NCBI GenBank assembly: GCA_963841825.1 | Contig: CAWJEL010000021.1 | Span: forward strand, 7,260-71,259 | Source of the DNA: an uncultured Chloroflexia bacterium | GTDB taxonomy: Bacteria; Chloroflexota; Anaerolineae; CG2-30-64-16 | Direction of reading: 5' to 3' | DNA length: 64,000 nucleotides | Notes under the pieces: generated by a model | What the model was told of the DNA's origin: nothing | Databases searched by the model: none | Seen by the model: only the letters and a program-made list of their open reading frames with translations | Translations under genes and position numbers: made by a program | Shown: positions 27,577 to 30,773 of the stretch, one piece after another | How positions within the stretch are numbered: position 1 is the stretch's first letter | How the letters are laid out: every line of letters begins with the position of its first letter

Positions 27577-30500
27577 GCGATCTCGCCCGAACTCCGATCG
27601 CACACAATGCGCGTCAGGCCGCGGGGCCGGCGACCCGCGGCTTGCTGCAACGCCAATGCGCGTGCGGCAATCACACGGTCGCGGGTGGGGAGTGCGCGGC
27701 CTGCGCGAAGAAAAAGAACGGTTTGCAGCGGAAGCTTGCCATTGGCGCAAGCAATGATCCACTGGAACGGGAAGCCGACCGAGTGGCGGATCAGGTGATG
27801 GCCGCATCGGCACATCCCGTAGTTGGCGGCGCCCCACCGCGCATCCAGCGCTCCGCGAGGCAAGCGACCGAGGGTACGGGCACCGCGCCCGCCAGCGTTG
27901 ACCGTGTCCTTGCCGGCGCAGGCAGGCCACTCGAACCCGCCCTGCGACAGGACATGGAACAACGCTTCGGCCACGATTTCTCGCGTGTGCGCGTGCATGC
28001 CGGCGCTGCGGCTGAGCAATCAGCGCGGGAGGTGAACGCCAATGCCTACACAGTCGGACACGCCGTTGTGTTCGGTGCGGGGGGGTTCGCACCGGGTACG
28101 CAGGAGGGACGGCGGTTGATTGCCCATGAGCTGACGCATGTGGTGCAACAGGCGGATCATCTGGGGCCAGTGCAGATGCTTCGTCGCAACGCCTGCGCTC
28201 ACGACCAGCCGCAAGGATCTGGCTGCGGCCGGATCGTGGGCACCGACGCGTCAGGGGACGAGACCGAATTCCCGGCCGATCGGCTCATCGCTGAATCCAT
28301 GCGGTCGAAATTCCCCTCTGGCTCATGGATTGCGCAAGTATACACGCCACCCAATCTCGCCAAGGGCGGGAAGGCATTCGGCAAAATGGACGCCGTCAAG
28401 GTGACAGAAGGCAACGATCTGACCCTTGAGGTCGTCGAGATCAAATCGCGAAACAACGGAATGGGCACCGGCGGGTGCGCCCTCGCCACGACCGAGACCT
28501 TGGGGTACATCGCTGCGCTTAACCCGCTCACCCCGAGGATGGCAGCGATCTCGCAGGGGCTTCAGAAGATAGGCGGTTTAAGTCTTCCAGACTGCCGCAG
28601 CATAAACGCTGAGACGAAAAAAAAGCTTGGCGATGCGGGCATCAATACGGACGACAAGACAGATATGGACGCCTGGTGCGTCCTGAACAGCATCCAGAAC
28701 CGGCTCGGACGGAAGATCACGAAAGGCTTCGCGTCGGTCACGGTGAAGGCAAACAAGGACGGAACTGCCGGAACCGATTACACGGCGGTTGCATTCCCTA
28801 TCCGCTGCCGAGGGGATAAAAGCGGTTTGTTCCGCATGGTATTCCAGGTCAACCAGAAGGGTGGGGTCAGTTATCGGTGCGAGAAAGCGTGCAGCGAGAA
28901 GCGGCGGAAAGAGCTTGAGAAGGAACTCGAGAAGGACATGAGCAAAGAGGTCGAGATCCAGACCCAAGCGGAGAAAAAGAAATATACGTTCGACGAGCCG
29001 ATCGGGGACGAGGACCCGAGCGAGGATTCGCGTGTCGAGGTCGGAGATGAGGGGATCGACACCACCGACCTGGCGATTTGGAGCACGGGGGCGGTAGCGG
29101 CAACGGCAGCGCTTCATATCGCGATGAGCAAGGCAAAAACGAAAGCAGAGCAAGAGCTCATCCGCAGAACTACTGAAAAGCTCACGCAGGAGCTAGCTCG
29201 ACGCGGCGCGCCAGAAGTTGCCAAGATGCTCGACTCGAAGAATCTCTCGAAGCTCGGGACGAAGGCCTATCAGGAGGCACTTGAAAAAGCGGAACAGGCG
29301 GCCCAAAAGCGGATCCTGGCGGCAGGTGAGAAGCGACTTGCCAAGAAGCTCGCCGAAAAGGGATTGAAGAAAGGGGCCAAGACGGCCGCAAAGAAACTGG
29401 TCGAGAAGGGGGCGAAGGCGATCCCCTACATCGGCGCGATCATCGTCGCCGTAGAACTCCTCGGTGCTGCTGATGCCTATGCCAAGGGAGCGGAGATCCA
29501 GTTCGGCCTGGAAGGCGGCGACGCTGACCTTGCGGGGGACACTAACGTCGAGGTCAAGGGAGACAAGCCGAAGGGCGGAGCCACGACCGATGCCAACCTG
29601 AAGGACACGAAGATCGACGTGGAGTTGGCTAAAGCCCCGGACACATCAGGTTCAATTGAAATCGAGGCCAAGAAGGTCTCGATCCGAGGCAAGATCGGGG
29701 CCGATAACACTCCCGTCCTCGTGGATATGAAACTCAAGCTAGAAAACACTACGATCATTTATAAGAATACCGGTCGGTTCAAAGGGGGCAAGGTGGTGCT
29801 TGACGGCTCCCTAAACATTCAGGACTCCACAATCGAGATTGATCTCCCCAAGGACGCAGTGATCGAAACATCCGATGCGATGGCAACACGCGAGATCAAG
29901 GGTGCGAAGATCAAAATCACGAAGGTCGGCTCAGGCCCTGGCGCAGGCAAAGGCGAAGGCCAGGCCGAAGTCGCTGCAGGGGAAAAGTCCAAGGACGTCG
30001 AGAAAAAGGAGCCCCTCAGCGCCGAGGAGGTCAAACTCATCGAAGCTATTCGGAAAGACGAGAAGCTGAAGAAGATCTACGACGCCATCTTCGGGGCTAA
30101 AGGACTCAAGGTCGACAAAGCAACCCTCGACCGATTCCTCGCCCTCAAGGCCAAGCTCGAAGCCCACCCTGAACTTGTCGATGTCATCATCAAGAACAGC
30201 ACAAAGGGGGACGTAACCGACCCGATCAAGCAGGTTATCGAGCCTATGGAGCGCATTATCGCGGATGCAGAGAAGCAGAGCGAGCCCAAGAAGGATGCTG
30301 CGCCCCCGGCCGACGCGACATCGCCTTCAGATCCGAAGAAAGATGAGAAACAGAAGGAACCGGAGAAGGCTGCTGCGGCAGAAACCGCAACAGCCTCGGG
30401 ACCAACGGATGCGGAGAAAGCGAAGGCCACACCGCTGGCCTTTTGGTCGCTCTTCGATAAGGGTGAGGCAAAGCCAACCCGTGTCGGAGTCGACGATTCA

Positions 30501-30773
30501 AGCACACCCACACCGACCGCGGCGGTTCCGATCAGGCTCGCAGCCATGAACCGCACCTATAAGCTCGCGCTCCGTGGCACGCTTGAATCGCAAGTGACAC
30601 CGCCTGATTCGAAGCTTCTCTGGGAGGGCTGGTATCTGTTCAAACCTCCGGCTGGACTTGTGAAGTCGGAGCAAGGGGACATGGCCATCTACTTCACTGA
30701 CGCAGCTACCAAGCGTAAGTTAAAGTACGGCGCCTTCAAGTCCAAGAAGCCGGCTGCAGCCAAGAAGAAGTGA
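27573..30773 (+). CDS. DUF4157 (HExxH metallopeptidase-like) N-terminal domain effector 1 with a large Lys/Glu-rich C-terminal cargo
   Basis: Start set at GTG 27573. CACGNHTVAGGECAACAKKK Cys cluster, EREADRVADQV, FGHDFSRVRVH and HELTH (28124-28138). C-terminal ~880 aa are unrelated to effector 2 and AT-richer. Confidence 0.85.
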   Translation: MSDLARTPIAHNARQAAGPATRGLLQRQCACGNHTVAGGECAACAKKKNGLQRKLAIGASNDPLEREADRVADQVMAASAHPVVGGAPPRIQRSARQATEGTGTAPASVDRVLAGAGRPLEPALRQDMEQRFGHDFSRVRVHAGAAAEQSAREVNANAYTVGHAVVFGAGGFAPGTQEGRRLIAHELTHVVQQADHLGPVQMLRRNACAHDQPQGSGCGRIVGTDASGDETEFPADRLIAESMRSKFPSGSWIAQVYTPPNLAKGGKAFGKMDAVKVTEGNDLTLEVVEIKSRNNGMGTGGCALATTETLGYIAALNPLTPRMAAISQGLQKIGGLSLPDCRSINAETKKKLGDAGINTDDKTDMDAWCVLNSIQNRLGRKITKGFASVTVKANKDGTAGTDYTAVAFPIRCRGDKSGLFRMVFQVNQKGGVSYRCEKACSEKRRKELEKELEKDMSKEVEIQTQAEKKKYTFDEPIGDEDPSEDSRVEVGDEGIDTTDLAIWSTGAVAATAALHIAMSKAKTKAEQELIRRTTEKLTQELARRGAPEVAKMLDSKNLSKLGTKAYQEALEKAEQAAQKRILAAGEKRLAKKLAEKGLKKGAKTAAKKLVEKGAKAIPYIGAIIVAVELLGAADAYAKGAEIQFGLEGGDADLAGDTNVEVKGDKPKGGATTDANLKDTKIDVELAKAPDTSGSIEIEAKKVSIRGKIGADNTPVLVDMKLKLENTTIIYKNTGRFKGGKVVLDGSLNIQDSTIEIDLPKDAVIETSDAMATREIKGAKIKITKVGSGPGAGKGEGQAEVAAGEKSKDVEKKEPLSAEEVKLIEAIRKDEKLKKIYDAIFGAKGLKVDKATLDRFLALKAKLEAHPELVDVIIKNSTKGDVTDPIKQVIEPMERIIADAEKQSEPKKDAAPPADATSPSDPKKDEKQKEPEKAAAAETATASGPTDAEKAKATPLAFWSLFDKGEAKPTRVGVDDSSTPTPTAAVPIRLAAMNRTYKLALRGTLESQVTPPDSKLLWEGWYLFKPPAGLVKSEQGDMAIYFTDAATKRKLKYGAFKSKKPAAAKKK
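27642..28152 (+). repeat. Shared N-terminal effector module, copy A (direct repeat of 30914-31427)
   Basis: Side-by-side reading: long runs are identical, e.g. GCGTGCGGCAATCACACGGTCGCG and CGGAAGCTTGCCATTGGCGCAA.CAATGATCCACTGGAACGGGAAGCCGACCGAGT. A divergent patch lies around 27790-27840. Confidence 0.85.

Follow-up and report, generated by a model that had tools for sequence, protein, structure and literature searches.

Which function, and which origin, should be assigned to the long lysine-rich region that follows an HExxH module in a gene of an uncultured Chloroflexia bacterium? The gene lies in a 64,000-nucleotide stretch of contig CAWJEL010000021.1 (positions 7,260 to 71,259; hereafter the window), and a first-pass annotation made from the sequence alone had read the region past the module (28190-30773) as an effector cargo with a nuclease-like core, acquired from elsewhere. 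Our analysis places the protein in the known class of DUF4157 cargo of extracellular contractile injection systems (eCIS), built of unannotated domain families. Judged from its sequence and setting, it is very likely an effector of this type; a nuclease function of its first cargo domain is plausible, and the compositional argument for a foreign origin fails.

All sequence elements named in the first-pass annotation lie within one open reading frame (ORF; 27447..30773, plus strand), at the positions that it gave. The GTG at 27573 is most likely the real start, with a GGAGGG site upstream, and the 1066-amino-acid (aa) product has an exact match in a public protein collection (P0001). The gene can be divided as follows:

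27573-30773, plus strand: cargo gene, 1066 aa, of which 28190-30773 is the part past HExxH
27573-27926, plus strand: N-terminal region (aa 1-118), basic and Arg-rich, with CxC...CxxC and EREAD motifs; presumed loading signal
27927-28169, plus strand: PF13699 eCIS_core (DUF4157) zincin-like module (Pfam E 6.6e-31, aa 161-237 of the ORF)
28170-28907, plus strand: D1 (aa 200-445, 246 aa), Cys-rich, with D...ExK and (E/Q)xxxY; putative metal-dependent PD-(D/E)xK-like nuclease and the domain that defines the family
28908-29057, plus strand: acidic charged linker (aa 446-495; net charge -10, isoelectric point 4.2), formerly described as the 'coiled' region EKRRKELEKELEKD
29058-29492, plus strand: Lys/Ala/Glu-rich helical bundle (aa 496-640) with hydrophobic helices at both ends (29070-29126 and 29418-29480)
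29493-29927, plus strand: beta region (aa 641-785), conserved and amphipathic; weak internal repeat of two units
29928-30404, plus strand: Gly/Lys/Glu linker, helical domain CT1 (aa 816-903, 30018-30281) and Pro/Lys/Glu linker, from the AlphaFold2 model
30405-30773, plus strand: CT2 (aa 945-1060), compact and beta-rich, then a Lys-rich tail and the stop codon; swappable C-terminal module

The landmarks along the gene are HELTH, the HExxH motif (beginning at 28125), FPADRLIAESM (28269-28301), GKMDAVKV (28380-28403), LTLEVVEIKS (28419-28448), EKRRKELEKELEKD (28896-28937), AIPYIGAIIVAVELLGAADAY (29418-29480; Kyte-Doolittle 19-mer maximum 1.70), TKIDVELAK (from 29607), GAKIKITKVG (from 29901), and KSKKPAAAKKK (30738-30770). 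The codons of the D/E/K triad picked in the first-pass annotation are those of D273 (28389-28391), E289 (28437-28439), and K291 (28443-28445). Scans of the cargo region for Rfam families, tandem repeats, promoters, and terminators returned nothing relevant and no competing feature. Antisense ORFs (e.g., 28578..29153, minus strand) were judged to be spurious products of GC-rich sequence because the protein on the plus strand is strongly conserved.

The assignment to the eCIS cargo class rests on an N-terminal PF13699 module with HExxH, the setting of the gene in an eCIS operon, and an N-terminus common to this protein and a second cargo protein encoded next to it. DUF4157 is the eCIS core domain that lies N-terminal to toxin domains (Geller et al., PMC8213781); about half of the predicted eCIS toxins carry it, and 983 of 1130 of those have no other annotated domain (Danov et al., PMC11297309). 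The relevant neighbors of the gene are:

19684-45972 (roughly), plus strand: eCIS operon with cargo genes, recognized by Pfam matches
25268-27302, plus strand: Pvc15-like ATPase (Pfam matches to WHD and AAA), presumed cargo loader
30801-32663, plus strand: second DUF4157 cargo gene (Pfam E 1.2e-28; 620 aa), starting 28 nucleotides past the first

The operon begins with genes for a sheath, a gp19-like tube protein, a T4_baseplate-like protein, a disordered protein, a Pvc16_N cap, and the WHD and AAA ATPase; it continues with the two PF13699 genes, a CIS_tube-like gene, a Phage_base_V spike, Baseplate_J, a Tail_P2_I-like gene, and DUF6519. An identical gene order is found in metagenome-assembled genomes (MAGs) of Flavisolibacter (L001) and Saprospiraceae (L002) and in a metagenome contig (L009). 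In all three, the cargo homolog is located directly upstream of the tube-initiator-like gene, whereas in the window the paralogous cargo gene at 30801-32663 separates the gene at 27573-30773 from it. The N-termini of the two paralogs are 71% identical over 196 aa (80% at the nucleotide level), and alignment with the first cargo indicates that the true start of the second is probably an ATG near 30849. Past HExxH, the two proteins diverge completely; the C-terminal part of the second (~400 aa) is unrelated to that of the first and unannotated.

This arrangement resembles that of the AlgoCIS system of Algoriphagus machipongonensis, where two DUF4157 proteins, Cgo1 and Cgo2, fill the tube lumen and a common disordered N-terminal region is needed for loading, which is helped by the AAA+ protein Alg15 (PMC8894135; bioRxiv 10.64898/2026.05.27.728243). 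Both systems have an adjacent pair of DUF4157 genes in an eCIS operon, with a common N-terminus, different C-termini, and a Pvc15-like AAA+ ATPase nearby, and in both one cargo is short and the other long (620 and 1066 aa in the window versus 498 and 1228 aa in AlgoCIS). They differ in operon gene order and in the C-terminus of Cgo1, which is a predicted metalloprotease, and no protein of 1228 aa, the length of Cgo2, was found among the representatives of the D1 family.

The cargo proper belongs to a family that, from its sequence distribution, is rare, closed, and unannotated. Searches with the 865-aa cargo and its four segments returned only noise from Pfam (E <= 10), NCBIfam, and the sequences of the PDB. 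Among 5.8 billion clustered proteins, the cargo retrieved 17 clusters, all of which combine PF13699 with the same cargo and can be aligned over their full length. An exhaustive HMMER search with D1 among 1.84 billion representatives yielded 70 proteins (57 of them below 1e-30), encoded in genomes of Bacteroidota, Myxococcota, Alpha- and Betaproteobacteria, and Actinomycetota. In every family member found, D1 begins right after the DUF4157/HExxH module. A profile of the cargo past D1 detected no carriers other than DUF4157+D1 proteins among the best 8000 candidates, which is weak negative evidence. The claim of the first-pass annotation that this combination matches no described toxin thus withstood comparison with Pfam, NCBIfam, PHROGs, PADLOC, PDB, and Foldseek, and the locus defines one coherent family within the unannotated DUF4157 effectors.

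Mapping of the family architecture with hidden Markov models of the individual modules showed that neither the helical module nor the beta region occurs without the other (32 sequences). Only some family members have CT1 and CT2; elsewhere, the beta region is followed by unrelated tails, and the last ~250 aa differ between members, which marks the C-terminal module as swappable. In other branches, everything past D1 is replaced by ~550, ~240, or ~690 aa of different sequence, so that the length past D1 ranges from ~230 to ~720 aa across the family. In ten members whose C-terminal architecture is different, PF13699 was the only Pfam match. In almost every variant, D1 is followed within ~40-200 residues by one or two hydrophobic segments, and in the short architectures these are clearly transmembrane-like (hydropathy 2.0-3.1). 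By sequence comparison, the conserved chassis of the family consists of DUF4157, D1, the acidic linker, and the hydrophobic helices, and it is the far C-terminus that is polymorphic. This reverses an implicit premise of the first-pass annotation, which had treated D1 as the variable cargo. One branch (P0053, P0059, P0072, and P0076) has a ~690-aa beta-rich region past D1 with a repeated G-x-G-K/E-h-x-h pattern and no Pfam match, which by its sequence is another unannotated eCIS cargo module.

Is D1 a nuclease? The first-pass annotation had assigned it the restriction-endonuclease fold from the spacing of D, E, and K. Conservation was assessed on 59 full-length D1 domains with identities down to 28% (numbers in D1 plus 199 give protein numbering). 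Invariant in all 59 are D12, C19, W53, D74, E90, K92, G102, C103, A106, Y113, C213, G231, G232, S234, C237, and C241; C9 is kept in 58, and position 109 is occupied by E in 55 sequences and by Q in 4. The D/E/K of the first-pass annotation (D273, E289, and K291) correspond to D74, E90, and K92 and are therefore among the invariant residues. An AlphaFold2 model of D1 based on a 17-sequence alignment (predicted local distance difference test [pLDDT] score 85.5, predicted template modeling score 0.83; residues 1-15 at low confidence) has an alpha-beta-beta-beta-alpha core in the order helix 36-47, strand 52-59, strand 71-80 (with D74), strand 84-93 (with E90 and K92), and helix 102-133 (with E109 and Y113), followed by two helices and then four strands bearing the C-terminal Cys residues. 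In the model, the triad is thus located on the adjacent strands of a beta-hairpin. As far as the order of secondary-structure elements goes, this fits the alpha-beta-beta-beta-alpha-beta core of the PD-(D/E)xK superfamily, with D at strand 2 and (D/E)xK on strand 3, although the two helices intervene before the next strand.

The motifs G-x-h-D, h-h-h-E-h-K-S, and (E/Q)xxxY, together with the order of these elements, are those expected for a PD-(D/E)xK enzyme of the RecB/Cas4/EXO5 type. Such enzymes have an iron-sulfur (Fe-S) staple formed by Cys residues that flank the core, of which the Cys residues of D1 are reminiscent. D1 shares with RecB, AddB, Cas4, and EXO5 (PF12705 and relatives) the motif order, with (E/Q)-x3-Y on the next helix, and invariant Cys residues both N- and C-terminal to the core; it differs in the Cys pattern (2 + 1 + 3 versus C...CxxCx5C) and in a template modeling (TM) score to EXO5 of only 0.19. 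With the toxin domains PoNe (PMC6688995), Tox-REase, and EAT9/EAT16 (PMC8213781, PMC11297309), D1 shares an invariant D...ExK motif whose two consecutive strands are preceded by a helix and a strand, and the fusion to a marker of a delivery system, but at 246 aa it is larger, six of its Cys residues are invariant, and no immunity gene is adjacent; no Pfam Tox-REase match was obtained for D1 at E <= 10. Like D1, PoNe is invisible to ordinary homology searches, which illustrates that genuine PD-(D/E)xK toxins can escape such searches and be recognized by motif and secondary structure (PMC6688995). Membership in either family was considered and rejected: in RecB, because hhalign against the RecB nuclease domain of Escherichia coli, as single sequence or 24-sequence profile, gave probabilities of <= 0.4% and there was no match to PF12705; in PoNe, because the motif Kx3GExnGIDx2YxnYx3ExK is absent (by-eye comparison with the consensus) and no PoNi gene (DUF1911/DUF1910) is adjacent.

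Beyond D1, aa 446-1066 were modeled with AlphaFold2 on a 16-sequence alignment. The segment boundaries drawn in the first-pass annotation agree with the blocks of model confidence, but its 'coiled' region does not: aa 446-495 have a pLDDT of ~36-41, which yields no confident coiled coil and leaves an acidic linker. The bundle (aa 496-640) consists of helices (pLDDT 63-84, falling below 50 over the last helix), and its first and last helices are the two hydrophobic stretches (hydropathy peaks 1.51 and 1.70). The 'repetitive' character ascribed to the beta region amounts to a weak similarity between its two halves (hhalign E 0.002, probability 13%). CT1 is a small helical domain (pLDDT 75-87) between linkers, including aa 904-944, that remain below 50. 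CT2 is modeled at pLDDT 87-91; its best fold match has an E value above 0.5. The entire region aa 446-1066 is without a match by Foldseek to the PDB (none at E <= 0.001) or in searches with PDB profiles.

From these parts and the parallels with Cgo1/Cgo2 of AlgoCIS and Tme of Streptomyces, a mechanism can be proposed. The N-terminal region would direct the ATPase-dependent loading of the cargo, which would enter the narrow lumen of the tube (width 3.6 nm in AlgoCIS; PMC8894135) mostly unfolded, and sheath contraction would eject it. The hydrophobic helices, perhaps together with the beta region as an oligomer, would then engage a membrane. D1 may act as a metal-dependent phosphodiesterase on nucleic acid, possibly stabilized by a Cys-bound metal or an Fe-S cluster as in Cas4, AddB, and EXO5, and the C-terminal module would contribute a lineage-specific function. 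Taken as a whole, from eCIS cargo, ATPase loading, and expulsion to membrane engagement, D1 nuclease, and C-terminal function, this account has about an even chance of being correct. If it holds for D1 and the membrane-inserting elements, the protein would parallel the effector Tme with a different catalytic fold, suggesting a general design of membrane-engaging nucleases among the cargo of contractile injection systems (CIS). A further-reaching version is improbable: that D1 founds a branch of PD-(D/E)xK enzymes stapled by a metal cluster and fused only to DUF4157, and that it joins the obligatory helices and the beta region in a self-inserting, tape-measure-like translocon that carries the nuclease and a swappable C-terminus across the target membrane after firing, in a cassette exchanged between phyla.

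Several results weigh against the proposed mechanism. Foldseek searches with D1 gave no match at E <= 0.001 in the PDB (best E 0.17, TM-score 0.19) or BFVD (best E 0.02), although the kind of hit speaks for a nuclease: three human EXO5 entries (E 0.17-1.3) lead the PDB matches, and among the weak BFVD matches at E 0.3-1 are DUF1064, restriction endonucleases, Endo I, and a PD-(D/E)XK nuclease. Scanning of 36 D1 members with hmmscan against Pfam, PHROGs, and PADLOC (E <= 10) revealed no recurrent family, D1 profiles of 17 and 36 sequences found nothing among the PDB sequences, and hhalign of D1 with the 24-sequence RecB nuclease profile returned a probability of 0.3%. The hydrophobic helices of this protein contain Glu and Asp and are of only borderline transmembrane character (1.5-1.7), and the beta region, although among the best-conserved parts, reaches a pLDDT of only 25-48. 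The ATPase gene appears to be frameshifted in the window. Moreover, at the four loci compared, there is no room for an immunity gene between the cargo gene and the next gene, which would be unusual for an antibacterial DNase; however, many eCIS toxins come without an immunity gene (Geller et al., PMC8213781). Neither the profile nor the structure searches produced a confident non-nuclease assignment for D1, the outcome that the first-pass annotation had named as refuting its reading. In sum, the invariant triad and its placement in the model agree with the suggested fold, significant matches to a profile or structure are lacking, and the view that D1 is a PD-(D/E)xK nuclease is plausible but unproven, just short of an even call. 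D273, E289, and K291, the six Cys residues, and the clear domain boundaries provide concrete features for testing it.

Each of the competing explanations accounts for some of these observations. The protein might act purely on membranes, with the helices and the beta region inserting or oligomerizing as a pore, an anchor, or a translocon and D1 serving as a metal-binding regulatory or binding domain. Hydrophobic segments past D1 are, apart from D1 itself, the most general feature of the family and reach hydropathies of 2.0-3.1 in its short forms; the beta region is conserved yet cannot be folded as a monomer, as would be expected of an oligomeric or membrane-bound state; and both the lack of detectable nuclease homology in D1 and the missing immunity gene at four loci would fit, as would the association of Tme and Sle1 with membranes (PMC11126660, PMC13277306). 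Such an effector nevertheless leaves the invariant D, E, K, E/Q, and Y and the six Cys residues of D1 unexplained, its hydropathy is borderline in the protein of the window (1.5-1.7), and no similarity to known pore-forming folds was found, so that we consider it unlikely as the full explanation. The position of the gene past that of the ATPase and near the tube-initiator-like gene, as in tme-like genes (PMC11126660), the long charged helical regions with hydrophobic helices, which recall phage tape measure proteins, and the fact that between the window and L001 the cargo is conserved at least as strongly as the structural genes would all suit a structural or assembly component, i.e., a tape-measure-like or lumen-plug protein that occupies the tube during assembly and whose C-terminal domain would dock onto the tube initiator or the spike. 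But there is no tape-measure match in Pfam or PHROGs, a length past D1 that varies from ~230 to ~720 aa is a poor fit to a ruler function, the position upstream of the cap gene is taken by the gene of another protein, disordered and conserved at its C-terminus, and the DUF4157 proteins of AlgoCIS are dispensable cargo (PMC8894135), which together make a structural role very unlikely.

An equally slim chance is left to the possibility that D1 belongs to the zincin-like DUF4157 module as its C-terminal lobe, and that the two form a self-processing protease which frees the downstream modules after delivery, with C208-x-H210-D211, 19-22 residues past HExxH, as metal ligands. Consistent with this, D1 always abuts HExxH without a linker, H11 and D12 of D1 and the neighboring Cys residues are nearly or fully invariant, and a role of DUF4157 in the release or maturation of toxins has been proposed by Geller et al. 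(PMC8213781). However, the great majority of DUF4157 proteins, including the adjacent paralog, lack D1, the first 15 residues of D1 are modeled at low confidence, and the metalloprotease motifs are dispensable for the toxicity of Cgo1 (PMC8894135).

The best functional parallel to the proposed nuclease cargo, by analogy of architecture, is Tme of the Streptomyces davawensis CIS, which combines DUF4157 with transmembrane helices, a coiled coil, and a nuclease and whose gene immediately precedes those of the tube initiator and spike (PMC11126660). Tme, tme-like genes, and Sle1/Sle2 (PMC13277306) share with the gene of the window a large ORF with N-terminal DUF4157, hydrophobic and charged helices, a putative nuclease, and a variable C-terminus. 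The genomic position, between the gene of the ATPase and those of the tube initiator and spike, is also similar, except that in the window the paralogous cargo gene comes before the tube-initiator-like gene. By contrast, Tme is longer than 2200 aa, ~70% disordered, and remotely homologous to tape measure proteins (PMC11126660). The nucleases differ as well: that of Tme is a C-terminal EndA-like His-Me domain (DRGH/H-N-N), whereas the candidate described here belongs to another, unannotated fold family and directly follows HExxH. No segment of the cargo showed similarity to tape measure proteins or EndA in Pfam, PHROGs, or the PDB. The likeness to phage tape measure proteins is limited to long charged helical stretches, embedded hydrophobic helices, and a presumed passage through the tube lumen; sequence or profile similarity is absent, and length is not conserved in the D1 family.

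Where did the cargo come from? The first-pass annotation had taken a switch in codon usage after the HExxH module as a sign of acquisition from elsewhere. The underlying drop in GC content is real, from ~0.68 to 0.54-0.61 across 28400-31000, but it is confined to codon positions 1 and 2. The GC content at codon position 3 (GC3) hardly differs between the cargo (0.68-0.73) and the N-terminal module of this gene (0.69), compared to 0.73-0.88 in the neighboring genes, and the Lys codons of the cargo are biased to AAG (AAG:AAA = 79:31), as they are in the neighbors. What changes is the amino acid composition: Lys accounts for 8-16% of the cargo, but for 1-3% of most neighboring genes (7% in the tube protein), and the share of Lys among the Lys and Arg residues, K/(K+R), rises from 0.17 in the N-terminal module to 0.76 in the cargo. 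The drop in GC content is therefore due to amino acid composition and not to codon usage. Because K/(K+R) jumps from ~0.2 to ~0.75 at the same DUF4157/cargo boundary in nearly all homologs, whatever the GC content of the genome (P0012 from L009 is a GC-rich example), the Lys-rich composition, as judged from these comparisons, is a trait of the protein family and not a mark of foreign DNA.

Foreign DNA recognizable by its composition was thus rejected on the unchanged GC3, the AAG bias, and the family-wide shift to Lys, and illustrates that a sharp intragenic drop in GC content can reflect protein composition. Whether the cargo was nonetheless acquired recently is a separate matter. Identities between the window and L001 are 52-73% for the cargo modules and 35-51% for the sheath, ATPase, and N-terminal module; between the window and L009, the relationship is reversed (58-80% for sheath and tube and 61% for the ATPase versus 27-45% for the cargo). 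Because the identities of cargo and structural genes are discordant, they suggest that the cargo cassette has been exchanged between operon lineages, with a breakpoint at the junction of DUF4157 and D1, at the level of the three loci compared. The closeness of the cargo to homologs from Bacteroidota (66-73% identity), in the face of diverged structural genes, and the GC content lowered by ~0.1 would agree with a recent acquisition; yet with GC3 and Lys codon usage like those of the host, a Lys shift that extends to GC-rich genomes, and a discordance drawn from three loci, recent acquisition of DNA that betrays itself by composition appears rather unlikely. An electrostatic fit of the Lys-rich cargo to the tube lumen, which is negatively charged in AlgoCIS (PMC8894135), was also considered and found insufficient as the reason for Lys richness, as the net charge is modest and variable (+16 in this protein and -5 to +17 among its relatives).

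Several minor observations concern the remaining parts of the operon. An LLQR(K/Q)CACG...C..C motif with four Cys residues, followed by PxD/NxxEREADxxAD, is present in the N-termini of both cargo proteins (27642-27720 and 30900-30990) and of many homologs; given its sequence and its location in the presumed loading region, it could be a small metal-binding knuckle. The domain boundaries of the first cargo could aid the engineering of loadable cargo. The only other Pfam match of the second cargo is a weak one to Peptidase_M91, which overlaps the HExxH region. The presumed loader ATPase is split over two overlapping frames, a WHD ORF (25268..26449) and an AAA ORF (26193..27302), with a frame change between 26167 and 26463 when judged against the single 641-aa homolog of L009; a frameshift, a pseudogene, or an assembly error may underlie the split. 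In the baseplate region, the plus-strand ORFs 36089-37540 and 37200-38567 overlap by ~340 nucleotides, perhaps because a start was mis-called or because the assembly has a frame problem here as well.

The apparently disordered, Pro/Ser/Thr/Ala-rich protein encoded upstream of the cap gene comprises 185 aa in the window (23461-24018) and 352 aa in L009 (3480-4538). It has no Pfam match but ends in a conserved motif, TI.V.IGRIEVRA....P......M(T/S)L(E/D)EYLR, and by its sequence might be a length-determining or assembly factor of this lineage. On the upstream flank (15247-19290), a homolog of MttB-family trimethylamine methyltransferases (minus strand), a fragment of a class-III aminotransferase, and a gene for a xylose-isomerase-like TIM barrel represent metabolic functions and mark the boundary of the operon.

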